In this document: positions 24,401 to 30,400 of the stretch, one piece after another
Layout: every line of letters starts with the position of its first letter
Numbering within the stretch: the first letter of the stretch is position 1
Program-made: the position numbers and the translations under genes
Source of the DNA: Eledone cirrhosa
Lineage: Eukaryota
Direction: 5' to 3'
NCBI GenBank assembly: GCA_964016885.1
Contig: OZ024742.1
Coordinates: 196,974,001-197,038,000, forward strand
Length of the DNA: 64,000 nucleotides
The notes under the pieces: generated by a model
The model's input: only the letters and a program-made list of their open reading frames with translations
Told to the model about the DNA's origin: nothing
Database searches by the model: none

Positions 24401-27400
24401 ACTGGATAATCAATAAAACGTATCAATTTAAATTTTCATAACCAAACTTAGTGAATCGTAAACTGATTAGTATTCCGAAAATCTCAGAAATATATAATTG
24501 AATTGATGAAAATATTTATAAAAAAGATTTCCATTTTACAAACGCCCTTCCAAGTAAGATATTGGAGGTATTGGTCTAATGATAGAATATTTTCTAACAA
24601 GAAATGCTCCGAAACACCTATTCCGAACATGTATTTACTATGGAATGAAATGAATTACGAGTAAAGAGTACACAATTATTAAAATAAATTTGCTTACGTT
24701 TGATCCAGGTACTCCTTGGAAGCCTTGTTGTCCACTTTGACCCTATTTGGTATAAAATGAAAGACATAACGAATCCATTACATAATTGATAGACAAAGAA
24801 AGTGATACAGTTTTTTTCATTTCAATGAAACGTAGCTCTGTTCAATATAATTAAAATTAAATCATCTGAGAAAAATTTAATGTAGATATAGCAACAGTTT
24901 TTGAATTGGAAGCCTCGGTGTGAAAATAAGGAGGTGTAAACGCACTTTCTACAATTCCTTTTGTACACAGAAAAATATAAGAGATTATCTTCGCGCGTTT
25001 CAGAGATTATTGTCTCCTCATCAGAAAATAACAACTCTAATATTTCTGTCTATAGAATGATTTTTATAGTATCTACGTCATGCAAGACGTAGATTATAAC
25101 TGAAATGACCAAAATGAAATTTGTATGAAGTGTATTTGTTTGACAACGTAATTAAGTAAATATTCAACATTTATGGATGTCTAATATTTTAGCGATGAAC
25201 CGGACTCCACCTGGCGGCAAACAGAAGCGGGGTTTCCACAGGATCACCTGGGGCAACCCCGAACGTTCCAAAAAGACCTGATGTCAGTCAACATCACTTA
25301 GCACAGACACGAAAATGCCGCCGCTGATCGATGCGCCGAAAAGCGCGGAAGAACCTAAGACTTAGAAGTATTTTAGCATCGGTCATAAATATACGTAATA
25401 CTATATAAACAGATATAGAAAGTAAACACGAGGGATAATTTCATGGCTATATTGCTACTATGGTTACATTGTTGAATGTTGTGATTACATTGCTGCTGTG
25501 ATTACATTGCTGCTGTGGTTACATTGTTGAAAGTTGTGGTTACATTGTTGAATGTTGTGGTTACATTGCTACTGTGGTTACATTACTTAATGTTGTGATT
25601 ACATTACTGCAAGTTGTAGTTACATTGTTAAACATTAATAAGCCAGTAAATAATTGTTTCTACTTTAGGCACAAGGCCAGCAATTTCCCAGTACATTACT
25701 GGTACTTTATTTTATCGACCCCGTAAGGATGAAAGGTAAAGTCAACCTCGGCGGGATTTGAACTCAGATCGTAAAGGGACGTAACTATGCTGGAAAGCAT
25801 GGCGTCCGACCCTCTACTGATACTGCCAATCCACCGCCCTATAAGCCATTAAATAATGATTTCTCGAAGAAGCTTCTAGAATCATAGAAATGAAAAGTTG
25901 AGCTGTTTACATAATCGGATCACCAGGTAATTGTCCTAGTAGATATTGTGGTTGTAGTTGTTACAATTGGTACTTGCAAAGGGTTGGCTGGCCTCCAATC
26001 AGGTTGCATCTGATAAGCAGTTTCTTTAGTGTTATAATTGTAAGGCCGCCCAAACTTATATTACTATTCTTCCGGCGTCAGTAGGTGGGATTTGAACTCA
26101 GAATGCACACAGAGCCGGAAAAGGATGTAGCCAAGCCTTTCGTCCGATGCTCTTTCTTTTCTGTCAATCCATCGCTCTTGACTGGTTCTTTATCGATCCC
26201 GAGAGTATGGAAGACAGCGTTAAATTTGATGGAACAGGAACTCAATGTGCAAAGAGCGCGCATAAATACCACAAAGCGTTTAATCCCACTATATATATAT
26301 ATATATATATATATATATATATATATATATATATATATATATATATACACATATATATATATACACATATATATATACACACATATATATATATATATAT
26401 ACACATATATATATATATAAACAATTAAGTTAAAGATGTACATCCATATATGTATACTGAAATACTAGTATGTATATGAATACACACACGTATACATATG
26501 TAGATGTACCAAGTTTTTTCACTGGTCACTTTACTGTGAGTGGCCAGCTATTCTGTATGTAAACACACAGACAAACCGGTTTTTAGAGTCATACTGGTTT
26601 TTGAGGAAACACCTTTCCTCTATTCTCCAGAAAGCCAGACAAGGAATATTGAACTAGTTTCGTTGTTGTTACAACTCATCAGCAATATTTACCTATCTTC
26701 CGGCCTCTCTAGAGAATCGTAAAAGCACATATCGTTATATGCTTTTTCTATGAAAATTAGTAGTGGGCATACTAATTTGCATAGAGTGTGAGTAAGTACC
26801 GGTTCAACGGAGACGATAAAAACAAATAACGAAACGAAATTAAATTTTGTTTCATTTGTAACTCACTTTTGTATGACTGACGCTTAAACAATTAAGTTAA
26901 AGATGTACATCCATATATGTATACTGAAATACTAGTATGTATATGAATACACACACGTATACATATGTAGATGTACCAAGTTTTTTCACTGGTCACTTTA
27001 CTGTGTTTACATACAGAATAGCTGGCCACTCACAGTAAAGTGACCAGTGAAAAAACTTGGTACATCTACATATGTATACGTGTGTGTATTCATATACATA
27101 CTAGTATTTCAGTATACATATATGGATGTACATCTTTAACTTAATTGTTTAAGCGTCAGTCATACAAAAGTGAGTTACAAATGAAACAAAATTTAATTTC
27201 GTTTCGTTATTTGTTTTTATCGTCTCCGTTGAACCGGTACTTACTCACACTCTATGCAAATTAGTATGCCCACTACTAATTTTCATAGAAAAAGCATATA
27301 ACGATATGTGCTTTTACGATTCTCTAGAGAGGCCGGAAGATAGGTAAATATTGCTGATGAGTTGTAACAACAACGAAACTAGTTCAATATTCCTTGTCTG

Positions 27401-30400
27401 GCTTTCTGGAGAATAGAGGAAAGGTGTTTCCTCAAAAACCAGTATGACTCTAAAAACCGGTTTGTCTGTGTGTTTACATACAGAATAGCTGGCCACTCAC
27501 AGTAAAGTGACCAGTGAAAAAACTTGGTACATCTACATATGTATACGTGTGTGTATTCATATACATACTAGTATTTCAGTATACATATATGGATGTACAT
27601 CTTTAACTTAATTGTTTAAGCGTCAGTCATACAAAAGTGAGTTACAAATGAAACAAAATTTAATTTCGTTTCGTTATTTGTTTTTATCGTCTCCGTTGAA
27701 CCGGTACTTACTCACACTCTATGCAAATTAGTATGCCCACTACTAATTTTCATAGAAAAAGCATATAACGATATGTGCTTTTACGATTCTCTAGAGAGGC
27801 CGGAAGATAGGTAAATACACATATATATACACACACATATACATATATACACATAAATATATATATATATGCACATATATATATATACACATACATATAT
27901 ATATATACACACACATATATATATACACACATATATATATACACATATATATATATATACACATGTATATATATATACACATGTATATATATATACATAC
28001 ATACATATATATATACACATGTATATATATATACACATGTATATATATATACACATGTATATATATATATACATGTATATATATATACACATGTATATAT
28101 ATATACACATGTATATATATATACATATATATATATACATATATATATATATATACACATGTATATATATATACACATGTATATATATATACACATGTAT
28201 ACATATATACACATGTATATATATATATATACATATATATATATATATACACACATATATATATATATACACACATATATATATACACATGTATATATAT
28301 ATACATATATATATATACACATATATATATACACATATATATATATACACGTATATATATATACACATATATATATATATATACACATATATATATATAT
28401 ATACACATATATATATACATATACACATATATATATATATATACACATATATATATACATATACACACATATATATATACAGATGTATATATATATATAT
28501 ACATATATATATATATATACATATATATATATATATACATATATATATATATACACATATATATATATATACACACACATATATATATATACACACACAT
28601 ATATATATATACACACATATATATATATACACACATATATATATATACACACATATATATATATATACACATATATATATATATATACACACATATATAT
28701 ATATATATACACACATATATATATATACACACACATATATATATATACACACATATATATATATACATATATATATATACACACACATATATATATACAT
28801 ACATATATATATATACATACATATATTTATATACATACATATATATATACATACATATATATATACATACATATATACATACATATATATATATATATAC
28901 TTGTGAGTACATTTTCCTTTAACTACAAATTATTATTATATACTTTCGTCTTTTCATTAACTTAATTAATTTCAAATAACCAGAATATACATATATATAT
29001 ATATATATACTCATATTTATATATATACTCTTCTCACTCACACACAAGAAAAACAAAAAACAAAAATAAATCAAAAATAAATTAAAAAAAAATATATATA
29101 TATTGAAATACTTAACTAAAACACACACACACTCAAAACTAGAATGGCTAACCAGCAAAAATCCAAACTGGTCTGATAATGAAATCGACATTCTAATAAA
29201 CACATGGCATTACCTTTCCCAAACAGAAGACATACATGCTTCATCTCTGAACGACATTGCTAAACGTACAGTTCAATTTTTGAAAACTCGATCTGAACAA
29301 CAGATTCAAAATAAATTAAAGCAAATCGAAATTGCTTTTAAATTAATCAATAAACATTTGGATAAACTACGGTGTGTTTTCTCTTCGAATGCTGTCCAGC
29401 AGCAGCAACAACAACAACAGCAGCTACAACAGCAACAACAACAACAGCTACAACAACAACATCAACAACAGCTACAACAACAACATCAACAACAGCAACA
29501 ACAACAACAACGACAACAACAGTGTGAACCACTCCTTGATTCATCAACAATGGCCGATCTACTAAATGAAACTATTGACCCCCCAGTAGCCTCTGTCTCA
29601 CAGCATGAAACGCCACATCCTTTCGCTGGCCCAGCAGTCCAATCATCACCACTGCCAACATCTCTGCCTACTACTACTACTACTACTACAACATTTTTGT
29701 CTACTGCTATGTCAAGGAATTTACCTTCTAATACCAGAACAAGAACTCTCCCTCCCACAGTCCACAAAGGTCGTCAAATCCTACCCAAACCATCATCTAC
29801 ACCTCTCACAACACACACACCCACATACCCACCCACTCGAAACCCCATCATTTGCCGCTACTCTCTACGCTATAGAATATGTACGGATAGTGGCTGCAAA
29901 TTCACCCATTTACCTAGGACAAAACGATCTATCCCCACAAACAGCCACCACCATAATACATACTCTAATTTAACACCAACACAACCACCAATAACTCAAA
30001 CAAGGAATCCACAAATCTGCCGTTTTTCCCTGCGAGACAGATTGTGTTTAGACCGGGATTGTCCCTTTACCCATCTCCCGGGGACCCGTCGGACAAATGA
30101 AAATAAAATTAAAAATAAAAGCAAAAACAAAAACCATAACCTACATAAAAATAACCACTACCACAGTCACCAACAGTCTTCTAAACAGGAAACTTCTTCC
30201 TCTTTTTTAGCTATAATGAATCTGGCAAAAGAACTGGAAAAAAACATTCGAGCTATCACCCAGCACCACCCTCCACTATCACCCCACTGCACAAACTCCC
30301 ATTGCTGCCATTAACAAACAAACAAATTAACAACACACCAAAACAATTAAAACCATCCACTCTCGCCTCTACATTTTTGCTTAACGCCCAAGGCATCAGC

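Follow-up and report, generated by a model that had tools for sequence, protein, structure and literature searches.

The element and its layout

The subject of this analysis is a non-coding repeat element in a 64,000-nt stretch of DNA from Eledone cirrhosa (assembly GCA_964016885.1, contig OZ024742.1, positions 196,974,001 to 197,038,000 of the forward strand), the whole of which we call the window. The element occupies 26418-27817, is built throughout from a monomer with a period of exactly 467 nt and consists of two arms that lie back to back between microsatellites. The monomer is numbered from 27385, directly after the predicted cut of the right-hand hammerhead ribozyme; sites A and B are the two monomer positions at which copies of this family usually end. 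The following features are discerned.

26290..26417, unstranded: left (TA)n/(CA) microsatellite target; the (TA)n array spans 26290-26419
26418..27005, minus: left arm, 588 nt or 1.26 monomers; running from site A (monomer 234) at its outer end to monomer 114 at its inner end
26629..26700, minus: left-arm type I hammerhead, Rfam HH9; predicted cut 26652/26651 by symmetry with the right copy
27002..27005, unstranded: TGTG microhomology at which the arms join; the 28-nt junction has a single genomic occurrence
27002..27817, plus: right arm, 816 nt or 1.75 monomers, from monomer 85 to 433
27336..27407, plus: right-arm type I hammerhead, Rfam HH9, with covariation support
27619..27687, plus: 'tail', 69 nt between sites A (monomer 234) and B (303); second copy at 27152-27220
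27721..27728, plus: ATGCAAAT, presumably an 'octamer' motif; repeated at 27254-27261 and also present in a sister family
27810..27817, plus: non-canonical right end within stem I (monomer 433); this end plus TA has one genomic match
27818..28899, unstranded: right (TA)n/(CA) microsatellite, 1.1 kb; (TA)n array at 27821-28899

Two 588-nt segments, 26418-27005 and 27031-27618, are 100% complementary across a 25-nt spacer, and the left and right parts overlap by the TGTG at their junction. With the ribozyme strand as reference, the arm on the left is antisense and that on the right is sense, so that the two point outward. The longest ATG open reading frame (ORF) of the monomer is 27/30 codons, no ORF with reverse transcriptase (RT) and GIY-YIG endonuclease, as expected of an autonomous Penelope-like element (PLE), is present in the element, and the GC content of the region is 0.32, a low value of the kind expected of retrozymes. 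The initial annotation had described a palindrome with mismatch-free 588-bp arms, a 25-nt loop and a TGTG join, made of about 1.25 and 1.75 copies of a non-coding 467-bp unit and abutting (TA)n at both ends; sequence comparison bears out each part of this description. It had also placed the element among retrozymes or the pseudo-long terminal repeats (pLTRs) of PLEs and judged the insertion young, and the window copy is indeed identical to the youngest subfamily.

The hammerhead motif

The right-arm hammerhead is composed of a 7-bp stem I (AATATTG/CAATATT, 27347-27353/27385-27391), CTGATGA (27354-27360), stem II (27361-27364/27371-27374), GAAA (27375-27378) and a CTAG loop III, and its GUU site puts the predicted cut at 27384/27385. 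A type I motif in each orientation, with this stem, loop and triplet, had been recognized at the outset; Rfam HH9 (RF02275) gives one match per orientation at 37.7 bits (E 3e-7), a score that lies below the gathering score of 52 and to that extent counts against the assignment. Seven of the 14 hammerhead pairs change on both sides across nine variants, for a covariation score that none of 500 shuffles attains; because these variants are related, and were picked by hand, covariation is taken as support and not as a probability. The CTAG loop III is invariant in 9/9 variants, while the cleavage triplet is GUU, GUC or GUA according to subfamily. In addition, the fold of the monomer is much stronger than that of shuffled sequences (z -8.6). 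Many matches to Rfam microRNA families, all under their gathering scores, were set aside as TA-repeat noise.

A dispersed family with paired ends

The 3.0 Gb genome was searched for further copies, whose existence the initial annotation had treated as a check on its reading. The 33-nt hammerhead core has 5,114 exact matches and its reversed control none, which excludes chance. Similarity search with the unit, in which 39 of 145 candidates were scored, gave at least 292 matches, spread over many contigs. Junctions of the B end with TA number 1,995 genome-wide, a lower bound on insertions; the corresponding A-end figure of 527 counts raw matches, duplicates included, to a subfamily-restricted pattern and is not comparable with it. 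Such dispersal over many loci is what a non-LTR retrozyme should exhibit. A hammerhead pattern that differs in stem II has 14,168 matches (control 11), nearly all of which, among the matches listed, belong to a sister family with a 466-nt monomer, 55% identical, and with similar divergent arms in the examples inspected. One copy of the sister family lies in the window at 37148-37726 (79% to the monomer of locus L213).

We compared 110 loci: 32 from similarity search (the window included), 20 found by the hammerhead only, 38 by the B end and 20 by the A end. One duplicate (L155, of L154), two loci representing flanks (L063 and L064) and matches below 84% identity were dropped before counting, and L045 was merged with L044 and L159 with L158. 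L154 and L155 (G000:C1:55.97 and 55.99 Mb) hold an identical insertion with identical flanks at a distance of 18 kb, duplicated either as a genomic segment or in the assembly.

Adjacent arms in minus-then-plus order were found in 81 of the 110 loci, and convergent pairs in none. Outer ends fall into two clusters, one at monomer 228-235 (A) and one at 300-306 (B); 90 of them are at 303. Among 113 elements, four of which are cut by the edge of the fetched sequence, 78 combine one A with one B end, one is A/A and none is B/B (binomial p=3e-22); A/B thus accounts for 78 of the 79 elements with two canonical ends, seven of these calls resting on arms so short that only motif search found them. The same pairing is seen in the 53 elements selected without regard to an end (37 A/B vs 1 A/A, p=3e-10), in the 39 picked on the B end (25 A/B, 0 B/B) and in the 21 picked on the A end (16 A/B, 0 A/A). 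An inverted head-to-head copy with a tail at one end only is the form expected of PLE-mobilised elements. The window copy is one of about 2,000 or more insertions, nearly every intact copy of which consists of two back-to-back arrays.

The window copy departs from the family pattern. On the left it ends at a canonical A, but the canonical B end, whose absence the initial annotation overlooked, is replaced by an end within stem I of a third, incomplete hammerhead, and the tail segment, terminal in other copies, is internal here. None of the rest of the right arm was seen downstream as far as 31200. We infer that at least 337 nt reaching to the B end were later deleted into the TA tract or that priming was aberrant; local misassembly is a possible alternative cause. 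Monomer 433 was rejected as a third priming site, with one genomic match vs 1,995 for B.

A distant relative at L104 (2349-2472, minus) has octamer-like TAATATGCA(A/G)AT repeats and a degenerate hammerhead, which suggests that the octamer matters. Newt satellite 2 has an internal promoter of the small nuclear RNA (snRNA) type. Such a promoter was not supported here: the U2 upstream regions lack the octamer, and the match to the monomer is no better than shuffles (41-268/300).

Junctions between the arms and target sites

Each junction appears to be an event of its own. Junction cores are unique to their locus in 78 of 81 cases, and the other three fell within plain monomer and are uninformative. 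Overlaps of at least 3 nt occur in 28 of 62 insertion-free junctions vs 6.9% at random, a count that derives from BLAST ends and may be inflated. Most junctions fit microhomology joining of two independent complementary DNAs (cDNAs). Inner ends lie no more than 40 nt apart in 20 of 81 junctions vs 14 by chance (p=0.06), and a minority may have arisen by fold-back. A distance of 29 nt between its inner ends gives the window junction the look of a fold-back.

Of 142 flanks, 133 are TA-rich, in agreement with the (TA)n targeting first suggested for the window copy. Repeats of 12-13 nt on both sides are present at five loci with non-pure flanks (L033, L036, L046, L116 and L128); 48 of 71 sites are unreadable for target duplication because they are pure TA. 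Retrozyme insertions adjoin or abut PLE ends at L031, L050, L060, L145, L151 and L169, an adjacency consistent with a shared (TA)n target.

The template

What template was copied into these arms? In 69 clean two-armed elements the median arm length is 674 nt (A) and 679 nt (B), with maxima of 5.7 and 6.1 kb, and arms range from 0.03 to 13 turns of the monomer. The cleavage site is crossed by 57 A and 58 B arms of the 69, which excludes a single cleaved monomer copied once and upholds the original proposal of a template longer than that. The 433 matched cleavage junctions all have identical spacing. Inner ends are uniform along the monomer (Kolmogorov-Smirnov p=0.28), and four of 138 lie near the cut vs three expected.

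The two arms of a locus share a haplotype. Median divergence is 0.21% between partner arms, 0.6% from the best arm of another locus and 1.8% from a typical one; the partner is the closest in 37 of 66 loci and tied in 19. Among the 18 loci whose arms each have 1.8 copies or more, differences fixed between arms number zero. Six private variants at five loci are fixed in all monomers of both arms (23/23 in L158 and 16/16 in L058). Moreover, the 10-13-copy arms of L034, L052 and L127 have zero internal differences. Arm length is unrelated to identity (rho 0.12, p=0.26), with no rise as divergence grows. The simplest account of these sequences is a bottleneck of one monomer followed by repeated copying, which a circular template would provide; tandem cDNA copied from a circle is proposed in PMC7229834 (papers are cited by accession).

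Public sequencing runs touch on the same unit. Run X4 yields it as one 497-nt contig (467+30, 6 differences), which fits a circle or a homogeneous array, the run type being unrecorded. Part of the stretch is present in 20 public runs from 17 studies, with fragments in X5 and 0 reads in X21, and no inference on host range is drawn from them. No RNA run is listed among those with the unit, which speaks neither for nor against its expression.

Penelope-like elements as candidate partners

According to PMC8557442, PLEs typically come with an inverted copy that is truncated at its 5' end, have a tail of 30-40 bp at just one of the two ends and favour (TA)n; the same paper calls their insertion mechanism open. 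As shown in PMC11167929, a PLE in purified form nicks both strands and extends them, and the two internal RNA sites from which it does so delimit the tail. The E. cirrhosa genome carries PLE ORFs with RT and, at the C terminus, a GIY-YIG domain, which the cysteine motif preceding the endonuclease identifies, on sequence grounds, as Neptune-like. In four Neptune-like families 17 of 18 divergent pairs are A/B and one is B/B; tails measure about 40-66 nt in the families at L095 (2262-8398), L100, L107, L108, L111 and L112. Several of these families also have, by eye, hammerhead-like motifs in which the core is altered and the loop is CCGG. The search for a partner drew 10,597 GIY-YIG candidates, of which 150 were scored and 50 loci compared.

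The window itself holds short head-to-head PLE end fragments in (TA)n at 7763-8188, 15515-15896 and 45214-45663 (families F107 and F098). Each has one tailed and one tail-less end, and that at 45214-45663 has a hammerhead per orientation.

A model for the two-armed arrays

Tandem short monomers with a type I hammerhead each give the window family, as judged from its sequence, the character of a non-LTR retrozyme. We consider it quite probable that it is one and that a PLE enzyme, primed on both target strands, reverse-transcribes its RNA, which is likely a circle. For the mechanism itself we favour, at somewhat better than even chances, double rolling-circle reverse transcription, in which a dimeric PLE would work on one ribozyme-made circle with one fixed start per strand and lay down up to 13 copies in both directions. 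Array transcripts would be cut by the hammerhead and the monomers ligated into circles, as the fold and other retrozymes suggest. The PLE enzyme would then nick both strands of (TA)n, a target that is itself observed. Of the two 3'-OH ends, one would start at monomer ~303 (B), its counterpart at ~229-235 (A); the fixed ends and their pairing are observed, and they are read as RT start sites because of the biochemistry in PMC11167929. Both cDNAs would travel around the circle for 0.03 to 13 turns, the observed lengths. Finally, they would stop at random and be joined by microhomology, giving the divergent arms that are seen.

Several observations weigh against this proposal, in addition to the HH9 score, the choice of variants and the BLAST-derived overlaps given above. 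Of the 113 elements, 22 are one-armed and eight, the window copy among them, have one non-canonical end. In 10 of 66 loci an arm from another locus is closer than the partner arm. Within-arm variants with a higher-order period occur in L032, L056, L136, L158 and L170, and such repeats within one arm mean that copies are also gained by duplication at the DNA level once the element has been inserted. At 69-74 nt the tail is longer than the 30-40 bp of published PLEs. In vitro the start site is the same for both strands (PMC11167929), which leaves the strict A/B pairing without a biochemical explanation so far. The 50 GIY-YIG loci yielded no pLTR with homology to the monomer, either by blastn or by a profile of both retrozyme families, searches that returned only retrozyme copies and the distant degenerate relative at L104. 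Eight of nine Xenopus retrozyme dimers stayed uncleaved in vitro (bioRxiv 10.64898/2026.07.22.740005), and here both circle and cleavage are predictions from genomic sequence.

A first alternative is that the PLE primes twice on uncleaved linear multimers, that long arrays are in part the product of later unequal crossover and that the hammerhead is dispensable for mobility. PLE insertion in vitro is unaffected by hammerhead mutants and unprocessed RNA is the main substrate (PMC11167929); a local-amplification view of arrays is put forward in bioRxiv 10.64898/2026.07.22.740005. Older arms do hold higher-order duplications, and just 26 of 96 arms not chosen for length attain two copies. However, variants fixed in every monomer of both arms require a one-monomer bottleneck, parental junctions are never inherited, inner ends do not pile up at a transcript 5' end, some arms of 10-13 copies are internally identical, and arms do not lengthen with divergence. 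We regard this alternative as unlikely.

In a second alternative, one cDNA, as the initial annotation had it for the window copy, or an antisense template snaps back and copies itself, and the endonuclease resolves the ends into a tail. Self-priming has been modelled for PLEs in PMC3846280, and 'EN-mediated resolution' is the term of PMC8557442. The close inner ends of the window junction speak for it, as do the junctions of L051, L055 and L129, which overlap by 27-70 nt at hairpins, and the longer B arm in 12 of 16 near-diagonal A/B junctions. Annealing of two antisense cDNAs predicts hairpin junctions as well, however, and 61 of 81 junctions link positions more than 40 nt apart, the near-diagonal excess not being significant (p=0.06-0.10). 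Either arm may be the longer (A in 23 of 53 far junctions), and the outer ends are two different fixed sites, at the second of which a copy-back arm would have to halt exactly. Snap-back is not supported as a general mechanism, and we hold it improbable.

A third possibility is that RT jumps repeatedly among cleaved linear monomers and so builds concatemers without a covalent circle. This would likewise yield arrays that are homogeneous and run across the cut site. Small indels are a usual trace of template jumps, yet the 433 matched junctions include no length variants at the cut and inner ends are not in excess there, so that we give this possibility very little credence.

Perfect palindromes are a known artefact of long reads, and the odd right end, beside 1.1 kb of (TA)n, could come from a local assembly error, but a chimeric read or assembly error as the source of the palindrome is highly improbable, since the flanks differ between sides, the arms are unequal, the A/B pairing recurs across the family and contigs of run X1 (library type unrecorded) have at least 15 inter-orientation joints at different places (depth 5-39) and also TA junctions at sites A and B. 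The joints of run X1 support the layout of the family.

Other features of the window

A further type I hammerhead family, TTTTATCTGATGAAA...GAAATA, is present at window positions 21351, 37066, 39313 and 39442, with a head-to-head pair at 39.3-39.5 kb and similar motifs in L100, L105 and L111. To the right of the TA tract lies a long interspersed element (LINE)-like element (29070-33319) with a weak Myb/SANT-like ORF followed by AP (apurinic/apyrimidinic) endonuclease and RT in broken frames, and then 3.2 kb of (TA)n (33408-36651).

Relation to known systems and implications

The metazoan non-LTR retrozymes of PMC7229834 and bioRxiv 10.64898/2026.07.22.740005 are likewise built of AT-rich non-coding monomers in tandem, each with one type I hammerhead, and both papers propose that PLEs mobilise them. 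The monomer here, at 467 nt, exceeds the 170-400-nt RNAs of the reported metazoan retrozymes, and the arrays are two-armed with fixed paired ends, whereas term searches in the main texts of these two papers found neither inverted or palindromic arrays nor an analysis of target sites, and in that of the preprint no tail. The minimal hammerheads of axolotl and newt, which cleave as dimers, also have a 1-2-bp helix III and a palindromic tetranucleotide loop (PMC7229834), as does the motif here with its CTAG; the hammerhead of the window family, unlike these, is predicted from sequence and its triplet varies (GUU/GUC/GUA). The endonuclease-bearing (EN+) PLEs Neptune, Poseidon and Naiad (PMC8557442, PMC3846280, PMC11167929) commonly show a head-to-head inverted copy with a one-end tail, and share with the window family TA-rich targets, short target duplications and a hammerhead upstream of the ends. 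The window family differs from them in having no ORF, arms of up to 13 whole units and a tail some 70 nt long. It behaves as PLE insertions do but is not itself an autonomous PLE.

Twin priming of LINE-1 offers another comparison. There, too, both target strands prime and microhomology joins the cDNAs, which leaves an inverted 5' part; one primer sits on the poly(A) end and the other at a random internal site, and the two parts do not overlap. In the window family, by contrast, both starts are fixed, at a distance of about 70 nt, and each of the two arms copies one and the same sequence over and over. Elements of this kind are already known; the two-armed retrozyme layout is an apparent addition, no description of such arrays having been found in the main texts of the literature searched.

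What are the implications of these paired arrays? The tandem and inverted insertion mode of PLEs and the role of retrozyme circles as templates are stated as open questions in PMC8557442, PMC7229834 and PMC11167929. The family described here presents thousands of young events with two defined starts, a strict one-of-each rule and haplotype-pure arms, and both questions become specific assays on a 467-nt RNA. It also offers a one-step route to seed long perfect palindromes and satellite-like arrays. If double rolling-circle reverse transcription is correct, the family would supply direct evidence that circles of animal retrozymes serve as templates for transposition, and the inverted repeat plus tail of PLEs would be the outcome of obligatory paired priming.

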